Positions 430-4,139 of a DNA stretch of 5,198 nt are shown here, piece by piece. Positions within the stretch are counted from its first letter, which is position 1, and every line of letters starts with the position of its first letter. The stretch lies in IMG/VR virus record IMGVR_UViG_2663763280_000006; one strand, 5' to 3'. The position numbers and the translations under genes were made by a program. The notes under the pieces are model-generated. The model did no database searches and was not told where the DNA came from. It saw nothing but the letters and a program-made list of their open reading frames with translations. The DNA is from a virus (Duplodnaviria; Heunggongvirae; Uroviricota; Caudoviricetes).

Positions 430-1375
430 ACGCCCACTGGTTATAAACACACAGCTTGCGATGAAGATTGGCTTAAATGAAGCCATTGTGTTGCAGCAGT
501 TGCATTACTGGTTGAGAGATACCAATTCCGGCATGGAATGTGATGGTGTTCGCTGGATTTACAACACAACGGAACAATGGCTGGAACAGTTCCCATTCTG
601 GTCAGAGTCAACTTTAAAGCGCGCGTTTGCAAGTCTGAAAACGCTGGGGCTTTTGCGTTGTGAAAAGCTCAATAAATCAAAGCGCGATATGACCAATTTC
701 TACACGATCAACTATGGGAGCGAGCTTTTAGATGGTGGCAAATTGAACGAATCCATCGGTTCAAAATGCGCCGCTCCATCAGGTCAAAATGACACGATGG
801 AAGAGGTCAAAATGAAACGCTCCATTGGTTCAAAACGACCCAATGTCATCGGGTCAAAATGGCCTGATGATCTTACAGAGAATACAACAGAGATTACTAC
901 AGAGAATAAAAACACTTTTCGTCCGGAAGCTTCGCAACCGGACCCGCAGACCGCTGAACAGGATTTTTTAACCCAGAACCCCGACGCGGTTGTGTTTAGT
1001 GCGAAAAAACGCCAGTGGGGTAGCAGGGAGGATTTGGCGTGTGCGCAGTGGATTTGGGGGCGGATCGTGAACCTTTACGAACAGGCTGCCAGCGACGATG
1101 GAGAGATCATGCGACCAAAAGAGCCTAACTGGACAGCCTGGGCCAATGACGTGCGCACAATGCGGATGCTGGATGGCAGAAGCCACAGACAAATTTGCGA
1201 AATGTTTGGTCGGGTACAGCGAGATCCATTCTGGGTAAAAAACATCATGAGCCCGTCAAAACTCCGCGAAAAATGGGACGAACTGGTCATCCGCTTGGGA
1301 CGTTCACCTGTACAGCGTTGTGTGAATCATATTTCTGAACCGGATACAGAAATTCCGCCTGGTTTCAGGGGATAA
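410..1375 (+). CDS. Phage replication initiation protein: N-terminal origin-binding (O-like / replisome-organiser) region fused to a DnaT-like C-terminal domain
   Basis: Long ORF (track 356-1375 opens with TTG; first ATG at 410 gives MSLLFAERPL...). The C-terminus ...SEPDTEIPPGFRG closely matches my recollection of the E. coli DnaT C-terminus (...SEPDSQIPPGFRG). The interdomain linker is encoded by the iteron repeats, as in lambda O where ori lies inside the gene. Stop TAA at 1373-1375. Start codon is uncertain (356 vs 410). Confidence 0.8.
   Translation: MSLLFAERPLVINTQLAMKIGLNEAIVLQQLHYWLRDTNSGMECDGVRWIYNTTEQWLEQFPFWSESTLKRAFASLKTLGLLRCEKLNKSKRDMTNFYTINYGSELLDGGKLNESIGSKCAAPSGQNDTMEEVKMKRSIGSKRPNVIGSKWPDDLTENTTEITTENKNTFRPEASQPDPQTAEQDFLTQNPDAVVFSAKKRQWGSREDLACAQWIWGRIVNLYEQAASDDGEIMRPKEPNWTAWANDVRTMRMLDGRSHRQICEMFGRVQRDPFWVKNIMSPSKLREKWDELVIRLGRSPVQRCVNHISEPDTEIPPGFRG
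752..861. repeat. Iteron array (candidate phage origin of replication) inside the replication initiator gene
   Basis: Five direct repeats with core TCCATCRGKTCAAAATG ending at 768, 791, 814, 837 and 861 (period 23, 23, 23, 24 bp, about two helical turns). In-frame they encode a repeated (S)IGSK peptide. The arrangement mirrors ori-lambda within gene O. Confidence 0.65.
874..912. repeat. A-rich 12-bp-period direct repeats (TACAGAGAWTA x3) immediately downstream of the iterons; candidate origin unwinding region
   Basis: Repeats at about 874-884, 886-896 and 898-908, followed by AATAAAAACAC. AT-rich relative to surrounding coding sequence. Position next to the iterons parallels the AT-rich segment of ori-lambda. 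Confidence 0.4.
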
Positions 1376-1415
1376 GTGTTGATTTCAGGTCATGAGGTAA
1401 TTTTAAGGAGGACTT

Positions 1416-1838
1416 GTGGCAAAAGTTTTTACACAGGAAGAGCGGGAAAAAATTAAAGAGCAGGTGGTCGAACTTGTGCGCCAGAGCGGTCGCGAGACAT
1501 TACGACAGTTGGAAGCTAAAACAGGTGCGACAAGATATCTGATGAGCATTCTTGCCAGAGAGCTGGTTGCCAGTGGTTATGTATACAACTCCGGCTACGG
1601 GTTATTCCCGTCTGAACAGGCACGAAAGGACTGGCAAAATGCCCGCAAAAAACTCTCTAGGGCGAAGGTGAAGAAACCCGCTGTGGTTGATCCGGACCTT
1701 ATCTGGTCACTACCTGATGGAGAAATACGTCGCTACGACAGTCGTCTAAACATAATCTGTCGCGAGTGCCAGAAGAGCGAAGTTATGCAGCGCATATTGT
1801 CGTTTTATCAGGGAAATGTTCGGTATCTATTTAAGTGA
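1416..1838 (+). CDS. Hypothetical phage protein (140 aa), possible helix-turn-helix segment
   Basis: GTG start at 1416 preceded by a strong SD (AAGGAGG, 1405-1411). Phage-like GC and E. coli-like codon usage. Stop TGA at 1836-1838. No family recognised; the segment TLRQLEAKTGATRYLMSILAREL is HTH-like but weak. Confidence 0.6.
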   Translation: MAKVFTQEEREKIKEQVVELVRQSGRETLRQLEAKTGATRYLMSILARELVASGYVYNSGYGLFPSEQARKDWQNARKKLSRAKVKKPAVVDPDLIWSLPDGEIRRYDSRLNIICRECQKSEVMQRILSFYQGNVRYLFK

Positions 1839-2155
1839 CGAGATTAAAGTGCATTAGTTAAGATGTAAATTGACATTTTCATGGCATAGGGTAGAGGTAG
1901 CGTGGTTGTCTGCTTTGTGCCATGAACTGATGTCGCTTGTGTGCGTGGCAATTAGTGTATAACGGATATCATCAGACTCCAGCAGTAGCATTGCTTGAGC
2001 ATACTAACATATGAAATCTTTAGTTAACGTAAGATAAATTAGATTTAGTATTTTTTTGAGTATGAGCTCATAAATAATCAAAAAAACTTGATACGCCATA
2101 TGACTTTGATTTATTTTGGAAAAACATAAAGGTAATGTAATGTAAAGAGGAAAAT
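1839..2155 (+). promoter_or_regulatory. AT-rich 317-bp intergenic region upstream of the NTPase gene; presumed promoter/operator region
   Basis: Sharp drop in GC right after the stop of the 140-aa gene. Contains a consensus -35-like TTGACA (1870-1875) without a convincing -10, a 9-bp inverted repeat TTCATGGCA/TGCCATGAA (1878-1886 and 1917-1925), and a perfect 12-bp palindrome TATGAGCTCATA (2061-2072). Exact promoter not resolvable by eye. Confidence 0.3.
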
Positions 2156-3643
2156 GTGGACATTAGAGACTGGCTACCAGAATTTCAAGTTTCAGCAGAA
2201 ACAGATCGGGACTTACAGACCTATTTTTTTAAGCTACCGGCGATAAAGGATATTATTGAAAGTAGGGCTTGGTTGGTTCTTGGAAGAAAAGGTACTGGTA
2301 AAACAGCCATTTATGAACACCTTAGAAGAGGAAAACCAGCCAATCTCAACGGGTTTTACTCAGTATGTCTAAATTTTAGTGACTATCCATGGCCAGCCCA
2401 TCAACTTTACAAGGATGCAATGGCTGGAGAACTTTCCGCTTATCAAAAAAGTTGGATGTATCTTTTTTATATTAAGGCATTATCTAAACTTATTGAAATA
2501 AAAAATGATGCTGGAGAGACTTTAAACAAAGATCTAACGTGGGCACATAATTATATCAAAACTATCTTTGGTAGTCCCGACCCAACTCTTAGGGAGGTTT
2601 TGTTTTCAAAAATAACCAGATTAAAAACCATAAAAGGGCCCAGTGCTGGTCTTAATGAAGTATCATTGGACGCAGGTGAAATTTCGTTAGAGGAAGTTGC
2701 TGAGAATGCTCAGCTAAAGCAAAAGCTAAGAGCTAATGCTTTCACGTTGCTTACGTATTTTGAAAAAATTTTTAAAGATAACATTGGTAATGAAAAAATA
2801 ATTATCGCCCTTGACCAATTAGACGAAAACTGGCTAGAGGGGCAAATTGAAGAATATAGTAAGGTTTTAATAAATCTGCTAAATGTCTGTAGAAACATAG
2901 CATCTGATGAACGCCTCAATGATAAATTAAAAGTCATTCCCTTCCTACGAACGGATATTTATCATTCTTTGAAATTCAATGATAAAAACAAATTATTGCA
3001 AGATAGTGCTATCATAATCTCATGGAATGAAAATAATCTAAACGATATGTATTATGAGAGGATAAAGAAATACAAACCTAATGATCTCATATTAGATGAC
3101 GAAAAGGACAGATCTGGGAAAGTATTTGAGGTTTCATTCGTTAGGCAGGGGACTCCTCCATTTAAATATATATGTCGCCGTTCTTTCTTTAGGCCTAGGG
3201 ATATTATTGTCTACTTCAACAAAATTAGGGCATGTCATAAAAATAATGTCTCAGGTCTTTACACTTCCAATGAGCTTTATGAAGCTGACCGTGAAGCATC
3301 TATAAGTGTGTACAATGAGGTGATTGATGAATGGTCCAACCAATTCCCTGAAATTGAGAACTTACTAACTGTTCTTCAAACTATCCAAGTAGAAACATTC
3401 GATTTTAATGATTTTTCCGAGAAGTGCCGTAATGAATTTGCAGGTATTTCTGATGGGGTGATACGTCAATATATCAACTTCCTGTTTGATAACTCACTTA
3501 TCGGACAAAAAAAACAAGGTAGATGGGAATACGTAAGTAGTTTGCCTAACTTAAAAATTAATCTACAAAATGAGTTTAGGACACATCATGCTTTAAAATA
3601 CAGGTTGCATTTAATAGAAAGCAGACCGAGCCAAAATATTTAG
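2156..3643 (+). CDS. P-loop NTPase of unassigned family (495 aa); candidate accessory/defence gene
   Basis: GTG start at 2156 with SD AAGAGG (2145-2150). Walker A GRKGTGKT at aa 43-50 (nt 2282-2305). Walker B-like KIIIALDQLDE at aa 214-224 (nt 2795-2827); alternative acidic motif DLILDDE near aa 310-316. RPRD motif at aa 346-349. Gene is markedly AT-rich (roughly one-third GC by eye) against ~50% GC flanks. Stop TAG at 3641-3643. Confidence 0.8.
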   Translation: MDIRDWLPEFQVSAETDRDLQTYFFKLPAIKDIIESRAWLVLGRKGTGKTAIYEHLRRGKPANLNGFYSVCLNFSDYPWPAHQLYKDAMAGELSAYQKSWMYLFYIKALSKLIEIKNDAGETLNKDLTWAHNYIKTIFGSPDPTLREVLFSKITRLKTIKGPSAGLNEVSLDAGEISLEEVAENAQLKQKLRANAFTLLTYFEKIFKDNIGNEKIIIALDQLDENWLEGQIEEYSKVLINLLNVCRNIASDERLNDKLKVIPFLRTDIYHSLKFNDKNKLLQDSAIIISWNENNLNDMYYERIKKYKPNDLILDDEKDRSGKVFEVSFVRQGTPPFKYICRRSFFRPRDIIVYFNKIRACHKNNVSGLYTSNELYEADREASISVYNEVIDEWSNQFPEIENLLTVLQTIQVETFDFNDFSEKCRNEFAGISDGVIRQYINFLFDNSLIGQKKQGRWEYVSSLPNLKINLQNEFRTHHALKYRLHLIESRPSQNI

Positions 3644-3858
3644 CTTACATCCATCTCCATTAAGAAATCTTGCTATTGTTCTTATGGATCGTCTTTCTGA
3701 CTGATTTCATATTGGCGAGGTAACGGTAGTTAAGTAGAATGGCTGCGGGTGCTTGAGGCTATCTGCCTCGGGCATGAACACCAAGGGCAGATAGAGAAAA
3801 GCCCCAGTTAACATTACGCGTCCTGCAAGACGCTTAACATTAATCTGAGGCCAATTTC

Positions 3859-4071
3859 ATGCTAGACACATGTAGGTTAGCCTCTTACGTGCCGAAAGGC
3901 AAGGAGAAGCAGGCTATGAAGCAGCAAAAGGCGATGTTAATCGCCCTGATCGTCATCTGTTTAACCGTCATAGTGACGGCACTGGTAACGAGGAAAGACC
4001 TCTGCGAGGTACGAATCCGAACCGGCCAGACGGAGGTCGCTGTCTTCACAGCTTACGAACCTGAGGAGTAA
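3859..4071 (+). CDS. mok: mok-like upstream reading frame of the hok locus (70 codons; in-frame ATG 57 nt upstream of hok)
   Basis: ATG at 3859 preceded by GAGG (3847-3850); 70-codon frame ending at the hok stop. In hok/sok systems, translation of the overlapping mok frame is needed for hok translation. The frame relationship to hok is recalled from memory and not verified. Confidence 0.4.
   Translation: MLDTCRLASYVPKGKEKQAMKQQKAMLIALIVICLTVIVTALVTRKDLCEVRIRTGQTEVAVFTAYEPEE
3916..4071 (+). CDS. hok: Hok/Gef family type I toxin (51 aa), HokD/RelF-like
   Basis: Translation MKQQKAMLIALIVICLTVIVTALVTRKDLCEVRIRTGQTEVAVFTAYEPEE is a canonical Hok-family sequence: single N-terminal transmembrane helix followed by the conserved RKDLCEV..G..EVAVF..YE motif. 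SD AAGGAG (3901-3906), ATG 3916, stop TAA 4069-4071. Confidence 0.9.
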   Translation: MKQQKAMLIALIVICLTVIVTALVTRKDLCEVRIRTGQTEVAVFTAYEPEE

Positions 4072-4139
4072 GAGACCCGGCGAGGGAGAAATCCCTCGCC
4101 ACCTCTGATGTGGCAGGCATCCTCAACGCACCCGCACTT

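Follow-up and report, generated by a model that had tools for sequence, protein, structure and literature searches.

What is a solitary ATPase gene doing between the replication genes and the hok toxin locus of a lambdoid prophage? The question is raised by a 5,198-nucleotide stretch of viral DNA (the window) from IMG/VR record IMGVR_UViG_2663763280_000006 (Caudoviricetes), in which an open reading frame (ORF) at 2156–3643 on the plus strand, opening with a GTG start codon, encodes a soluble P-loop ATPase of 495 amino acids (aa) and 57.9 kDa. Judging from its genomic context, we lean towards the view that this ATPase is a stand-alone anti-phage factor that acts as a nucleotide switch, bringing about superinfection exclusion or abortive infection, a view that leaves considerable room for other explanations. 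The gene belongs to a named family, the Sll1717 family, and is predicted to encode an AAA+ ATPase. It travels as foreign cargo in a slot that holds defence genes in related phages, and its homologues have defence-rich neighbourhoods and no conserved partner gene.

A Named Family of P-Loop ATPases

A preliminary description of this DNA regarded the NTPase as unassigned, which proved incorrect. The protein matches NCBIfam model NF047389 (‘P-loop ATPase, Sll1717 family’) with E = 3.8e-74 and 250.4 bits against a cutoff of 75, in an alignment that runs end to end (aa 13–484 on model positions 5–454 of 454). It also matches PHROG 13260 (E = 7.6e-34), all PHROG matches being to families of unknown function, and the identical E. 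coli protein WP_000354584.1 is named Sll1717-family P-loop ATPase in RefSeq. Sll1717-like homologues form 1373 clusters at 50% identity (E ≤ 1e-3), spread over many bacterial phyla, which goes far beyond a chance ORF, and most members are stand-alone proteins of 470–520 aa. Since the family already has a name and annotations, nothing about the gene’s identity is new. The novelty would lie in a role in defence, of which no trace was found in PADLOC v2 or in the searched literature.

Curated models of related ATPases do not claim the protein. A Pfam search gave nothing above threshold (AAA_16 scored 14.9 bits against a cutoff of 32.6), and TIGR02928 scored 11.2 against 181.3. Across the family, 21 of 46 members touch AAA_16 and 18 of 46 touch ORC-CDC6-like, all below the gathering scores, which leaves the ATPase outside the curated ORC/Cdc6 and STAND models (ORC-CDC6-like, AAA_16, nSTAND, TIGR02928). 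Similarly, the PDB yielded only P-loop-level sequence matches, whether it was searched with the one protein or with a 46-sequence profile.

The ORF and motif positions given in the preliminary description are exact: Walker A GRKGTGKT at aa 43–50, IIIALDQLDE at aa 215–224 and RPRD at aa 346–349, all of them invariant in 38 close homologues of 62–89% identity. An AAGAGG Shine–Dalgarno sequence (2145–2150) lies 5 nt before the start codon, and the features that follow, like the gene, are on the plus strand. An N-terminal AExD..L..YF helix precedes Walker A (2282–2305), which comes after a predicted strand at aa 40–43. The Walker B strand and acidic box, KIIIALD220-Q-L-D223-E (aa 214–224; 2795–2827), have the form hhhhD-x-x-D and begin with a strand at 214–219. 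Strand 4 (258–264) and the residues FLR265-T-D267 together occupy aa 258–267 (2927–2956). In an alignment of 46 sequences that reaches down to 21% identity, the invariant residues include G43, K45, G46, G48 and K49 of Walker A, D220 and D223 of the acidic box, R265, D276, K279, R302, and R346, P347 and R348 of RPRD, while D267 is at least 90% conserved. From AAA+/STAND topology, R265 is a candidate sensor-1 arginine. K279 and R302 are candidate arginine-finger residues. The RPRD motif (3191–3202), at the N-terminus of a lid helix (347–360), is a candidate sensor-2 element.

Conservation extends well beyond the motifs, with 163 invariant columns over the full length of the 38-homologue alignment. 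Among close homologues, protein identity (81–89%) exceeds nucleotide identity (73–79%), the mark of purifying selection. The highest 19-residue hydropathy window reaches 0.83, well under transmembrane values.

Variation within the family takes several forms. Rare fusions in distant members (P0164, P0170, P0249, P0253) add domains familiar from conflict systems: a GT4-conflict glycosyltransferase, EAD7 (for EADs, see PMC7159879), or N-terminal cold-shock domains. In some branches, these hint that effectors are recruited and nucleic acids sensed. Truncated versions of 331 aa and 365 aa (P0107, P0082) are common in protein databases, and an element of the IS3 family splits the gene in E. coli STEC313 and STEC367. 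Distant homologues on Bacillus plasmids carry the product name ‘FunZ’, for which the literature matches look unrelated by title or abstract. The name is probably a ‘function unknown’ label from Glaesserella capsule loci.

Predicted Structure

An AlphaFold2 model built on 38 homologues (pLDDT 75.9, pTM 0.69) lays the protein out as an AAA+ α/β core, a helical insertion of ~130 aa, a helical lid that starts at RPRD, and a C-terminal winged helix. Walker A and Walker B are predicted on adjacent strands of the α/β core and are followed by the helical lid, as in AAA+ ATPases, and the winged helix after the lid points to the ORC/Cdc6-STAND branch. A Foldseek search with the model ranked archaeal Orc1/Cdc6 first (5e-6). 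By this model, the fold is AAA+ of the ORC/Cdc6-STAND branch. The preliminary description had favoured a KAP- or STAND-like NTPase over AAA+: its STAND element survives in the branch assignment, the exclusion of AAA+ does not, and KAP was rejected, with no KAP match in Pfam or NCBIfam and no hydrophobic segment.

The long distance between Walker A and Walker B, on which that comparison had drawn, is due to the helical insertion (aa 79–212; 2390–2791), which is predicted to separate strand 2 from the strand of Walker B. The insertion varies more than any other part of the protein (mean column conservation of 0.34 vs. 0.42–0.48 in the core) and includes a loop of low pLDDT at aa 164–175. In the model, it may correspond to an enlarged form of the initiator-specific insert of ORC/Cdc6-type AAA+ proteins, and it is a candidate ligand- or DNA-binding module. 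The C-terminal region of ~140 aa, in which no obvious motif had been seen, contains the predicted winged-helix domain (aa ~411–490; 3386–3625), with the near-invariant H477, which may be a counterpart of the ‘MHD’ histidine that touches the nucleotide site in STAND proteins. Core, insert, lid and winged helix fully account for the predicted structure, and the tripartite architecture of STAND/NLR proteins is not present. A fold search of BFVD gave only weak matches to giant-virus AAA+ proteins and no functional phage match. With PHROG matches confined to unknown-function families, and with the gene absent from sibling phages (below), this agrees with the earlier statement that the protein is not a replication, packaging or recombination ATPase.

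An AT-Rich Cassette in a Variable Prophage Slot

The gene lies in a unique AT-rich cargo cassette (1934–3667, plus strand), delimited by blastn breakpoints against the sibling phages mEp460_ev081, HannyBb, Tritos, Evi, PhiR42_1 and 606R7. Homology to these phages ends between 1821 and 1933 on the left and restarts at 3668/3669 or 3727/3728 on the right. The guanine-cytosine (GC) content is 0.351 for the gene and 0.345 for the cassette, against 0.469 in the left flank and 0.492 in the right, which bears out the AT-richness noted earlier for the gene and the 317 bp upstream of it (from the DUF977 stop at 1838 to the start codon). An imperfect inverted repeat of 18 nt (78% complementary, 13-nt loop) occupies 1878–1926 at the left edge of the variable slot, where Tritos and Evi cease to be homologous to the window at 1922 and mEp460_ev081 at 1933. 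This repeat may terminate transcription of the replication operon or mark a recombination boundary.

The cassette-specific part upstream of the gene (1934–2155, plus strand) probably carries the gene’s own promoter, with TTGATA-18-TATTTT (2088–2117) as the best match. We word this as a probability because a promoter and terminator scan around the gene found promoter-like sites to be no commoner than in shuffled sequence.

Presence and absence were compared across 5426 complete E. coli genomes. The junction sequences occur in 776, and only 41 of these carry the ATPase gene (0.8% of complete E. coli genomes), leaving 735 junctions without it; the check proposed in the preliminary description thus shows that the gene is not a constant part of related prophages. 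Sibling elements fill the slot differently. For instance, mEp460_ev081 carries PD-T7-1 (locus 2688–4037, minus strand; 4e-157), Tritos a candidate of the FRG-domain type PDC-S15 (locus 1064–2398, minus strand; 1e-98), and the Qin prophage of K-12 relBE, while PhiR42_1 has a methyltransferase, HannyBb has QueH and a methyltransferase fragment, and Evi has an HTH-cupin regulator with a GNAT protein. Beyond hokD, at the place where the window has rem, Tritos carries RmrT/RmrA-like genes (3522–5278, plus strand; strong for RmrA, 5.5e-102, and weak for RmrT, 7.5e-10), so that the surroundings of hok seem to include two cargo slots. Foreign GC content, patchy presence and defence genes in sibling slots uphold the view that the ATPase gene is horizontally acquired cargo in a variable slot. 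The junction between DUF977 and hok in Qin-like lambdoid prophages is a swap-in cargo slot (PD-T7-1, PDC-S15, relBE) that could be mined for more cargo.

Homologues in Other Contexts

Homologues of the gene recur in other settings. An 81%-identical Serratia homologue sits between gpA and ogr/portal of a P2-like prophage, which is the gpA-gpQ defence hotspot of P2 (Rousset et al., PMC9122126). On a second P2-like viral contig, a close homologue lies beside flanks common to P2-family phages; relatives whose matched region spans this locus carry cytolethal distending toxin or DUF4238 genes, the slot itself being unaligned. In a Klebsiella Reipivirus prophage, the homologue occupies a 1.9-kb segment, in place of which phage Kp4845-1 has a different segment of 1.6 kb. 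Of the other copies, one in an Arcobacteraceae genome adjoins AbiTii and one in Enterobacter adjoins TacAT. The Nitrosomonas copy lies at the end of an integrase/gpA-type island, and the Tenacibaculum copy shares its island with GmrSD, a PIF1-type helicase, a DNA methylase and a reverse transcriptase. Vibrio cholerae homologues adjoin a filamentous prophage (Rep_trans, Zot). In two V. cholerae loci, a 97-aa ORF with no family assigned precedes the ATPase gene by ~135 bp (5573–5866; 270–563), and a third has a 94-aa ORF at the same position; the window has no equivalent.

Distant homologues on plasmids adjoin pifC-pifA or a KAP NTPase. On the Klebsiella variicola plasmid pKGB1a (locus 372–6536), a 29%-identical member lies ~1.3 kb from pifC and a ‘P-loop NTPase fold protein’, an arrangement like that of the pifCA T7-exclusion locus of the F plasmid.

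Sequence identity remains at 62–72% across Gammaproteobacteria, Campylobacterota, Bacteroidota, Bdellovibrionota and Patescibacteria. Nucleotide homology to 12 homologue loci in other contexts is limited to the ORF, and the upstream region is not conserved there. In 20 of 21 hosts tested, the homologous gene is richer in AT than its flanks; the difference exceeds 0.04 in 19 and reaches 0.29. Sequenced phages nearly lack the gene, with one distant tblastn match in 50,697 records, and it is carried by 11 of 2.9 million IMG/VR contigs.

To look for partners, 79 loci were taken from contigs chosen at one genome per species, and ORFs within 10 kb were clustered all against all. No conserved partner gene was found, the commonest neighbour family occurring in 6 loci. 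The 145 nearest neighbours match 68 PADLOC model families (E ≤ 1e-8), vs. 19 for 129 genes of these loci that lie 6 kb or more from the ATPase gene, a ~3-fold contrast that is crude, having been obtained with a simple ORF caller and by counting model families rather than proteins. The neighbour matches include Kiwa, MADS, PDC-M37, type II and III methyltransferases, PbeA and DolB.

Flanking Genes and Prophage Setting

RefSeq genomes that carry an identical segment show the element to be a Qin-like prophage, in which dicB, ydfA and ydfD lie to one side and ydfJ is terminal. Within the window, the ATPase gene lies, as the preliminary description had it, between the replication module and a hok locus. 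The left anchor is a DUF977 gene (1416–1838, plus strand; LygF, ‘Ren-like’; Pfam PF06163, E = 1.9e-28), the last conserved gene of the replication module and conserved in sibling phages. It follows an O-like replication gene (356–1375), inside which five tandem 23-bp repeats (754–869; core GGTCAAAATG-like, spacing 23–24 bp) look like the iterons of a lambdoid origin. No recognisable λ P or DnaC-type helicase loader is present in the module (356–1838), an arrangement common to viable sibling phages. Further left, a run of N at 55–72 in a YdaT/cII-like gene gives X residues in the translation of ORF 37–429.

The right anchor is a type I toxin–antitoxin locus, hok/sok/mok of the hokD type (3747–4071, plus strand), identified by Rfam RF01794 and by the hokD annotation in RefSeq. 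The Rfam sok match covers 3747–3921 (116.6 bits), and the mok ORF (3859–4071) has hok nested inside it, with a start at ~3916 as placed from the translation. A GC-rich hairpin follows the mok/hok stop codon (~4074–4100), and beyond it come rem and a DUF968 gene.

Proposed Function and Alternative Explanations

How might such a protein act against phages? The lysogen would express the ATPase from the gene’s own AT-rich promoter region, and the protein would rest in a nucleotide-bound, inactive form. The helical insert and the winged helix, as the two variable modules, might sense an infection cue, after which the ATPase could oligomerise on DNA or on a protein involved in replication or packaging, as ORC/Cdc6, MuB/TnsC and STAND proteins do. 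The assembly would obstruct DNA transactions of the incoming phage, and perhaps those of the cell too. The protein has no enzymatic effector domain, and its effect would therefore depend on binding or sequestration, or on the recruitment of an unlinked host factor. The defence function, its trigger, the oligomerisation and the DNA binding are what we infer.

Several findings weigh against a defence function. PADLOC-DB v2.0.0 holds no validated or full-length system match for the ATPase. The analysis found neither an effector domain nor a repeat sensor nor a partner gene, which leaves no visible means of killing the cell or restricting the phage. The neighbour contrast is crude, as said above; the slot also holds non-defence or counter-defence cargo (methyltransferases, QueH); and in a survey of hok loci, hok was not enriched beside defence systems. 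No paper in the searched literature mentions the Sll1717 family. Finally, so high an identity across phyla would be unusual in a receptor whose ligands are phage proteins that evolve fast. Two narrower searches were also negative: no papers were found on PDC-M28, and the ATPase is not mentioned in the supplements of Rousset 2022.

The missing effector leads directly to another explanation, namely that the ATPase is a non-autonomous sensor or scaffold that needs an unlinked factor of the host or the prophage (a nuclease, the replisome or the neighbouring hok/sok, for example), in the manner of RdrA with RdrB or BrxC within BREX. We regard this as unlikely, while granting that its structural relatives RdrA and BrxC act in multi-gene systems and that its conservation across phyla fits contact with a conserved cellular machine. 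The only PADLOC match of the ATPase, weak and partial (E = 4.1e-5, aa 212–304), is to the candidate PDC-M28C, the third gene of a multi-gene candidate system; 30 of 46 family members match it weakly (best in the wider family, 6.8e-15), which also speaks for a defence role, and 4 of 46 touch mad8, for which the MADS preprint gives no domain information. A fixed dependence sits poorly, however, with 79 loci that share no conserved neighbour, with nucleotide homology between hosts that stops at the ORF, and with a gene that moves alone among lambdoid, P2-like and other elements in hosts of different phyla. We give less credence still to a non-defence moron that benefits the phage, either as an anti-defence factor or as a modulator of host replication or the cell cycle like the DicB/Kil genes of the same prophage. 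The orphan methyltransferases and QueH in the slot are of the counter-defence type, and an ORC/Cdc6-like fold suggests action on DNA replication, but many homologues are chromosomal, outside recognisable phages and beside defence genes, and the gene is almost absent from phage genomes.

If the gene were passenger DNA, neutral or selfish and without a present function, its rarity in E. coli and its IS3-disrupted or truncated copies would be explained, but we hold this very improbable given the strong purifying selection, with its full-length invariant columns and protein identity above nucleotide identity, and the size of the family. Hardly credible is a replication accessory, that is, an ORC/Cdc6- or DnaC-like loader that replaces the missing λ P-type helicase loader after the O-like initiator. 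The gene does lie directly downstream of the O-like and DUF977 genes, in a module with no visible P/DnaC-type gene, and its predicted fold is in the initiator/loader branch of AAA+. Yet it is missing from the great majority of E. coli junctions, is of foreign composition, matches no PHROG or Pfam replication family, and has homologues in non-phage contexts. Since the viable siblings mEp460_ev081 and HannyBb, whose O and DUF977 are 96–97% identical, have the same module without the gene, a replication role is largely excluded, and the helicase-loader candidate was rejected on this presence/absence pattern.

A stand-alone anti-phage ATPase remains our preferred explanation, and it can be extended, tentatively and with more doubt than conviction, to the whole Sll1717 family as a minimal, effector-less immune ATPase: a one-gene ORC/Cdc6-STAND switch with a winged helix that would assemble on the DNA of the invader or on some conserved component of replication or packaging. 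If so, the 62–72% identity across phyla would come from recognising or acting on a target that is universally conserved, not a phage protein that evolves fast. Should the ATPase prove protective, a widespread family would be added to the defence catalogue, together with a small, tractable model of an ORC/Cdc6-STAND switch that restricts a virus without a fused effector; should it be inactive against phages, it would be an ordinary annotated family of unknown function.

Comparison with Known Systems

With NF047389 and PHROG 13260, the ATPase shows no sequence difference, and this family has neither a described function nor a Pfam model nor a solved structure. The archaeal AAA+ ATPases of the Arch_ATPase type (SSO1545, PDB 2fna; PAB2304, PDB 2qen) and Orc1/Cdc6 are related to it in sequence only at the level of the P-loop and, unlike it, do not have the ~130-aa helical insert after strand 2. 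It further differs from the Orc1/Cdc6 initiators in being mobile cargo rather than a replication initiator. STAND/NLR-like receptors such as Avs3, EfAvs5 and bNACHT combine a large C-terminal repeat sensor with an N-terminal effector, both absent here, and reach 800–2000 aa, whereas the ATPase has 495 and its nSTAND Pfam matches are sub-threshold. RdrA of RADAR and BrxC of BREX are likewise ORC/Cdc6-like ATPases, but they belong to conserved multi-gene operons, in contrast to a gene with no conserved neighbour, and the PADLOC models of these two ATPases are not matched. Closer in setting than in sequence are the cassettes with which the gene trades places. PD-T7-1 of mEp460_ev081 occupies the same slot, and old/tin and DUF4238 share the P2 gpA-gpQ hotspot with a homologue of the ATPase as swap-in cassettes; all are of unrelated protein families, and their anti-phage activity has been demonstrated. 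To find an AAA+/STAND-type NTPase on a prophage, in a defence hotspot, is a familiar theme, of which the effector-less, partner-less and highly conserved form described here is a variant.

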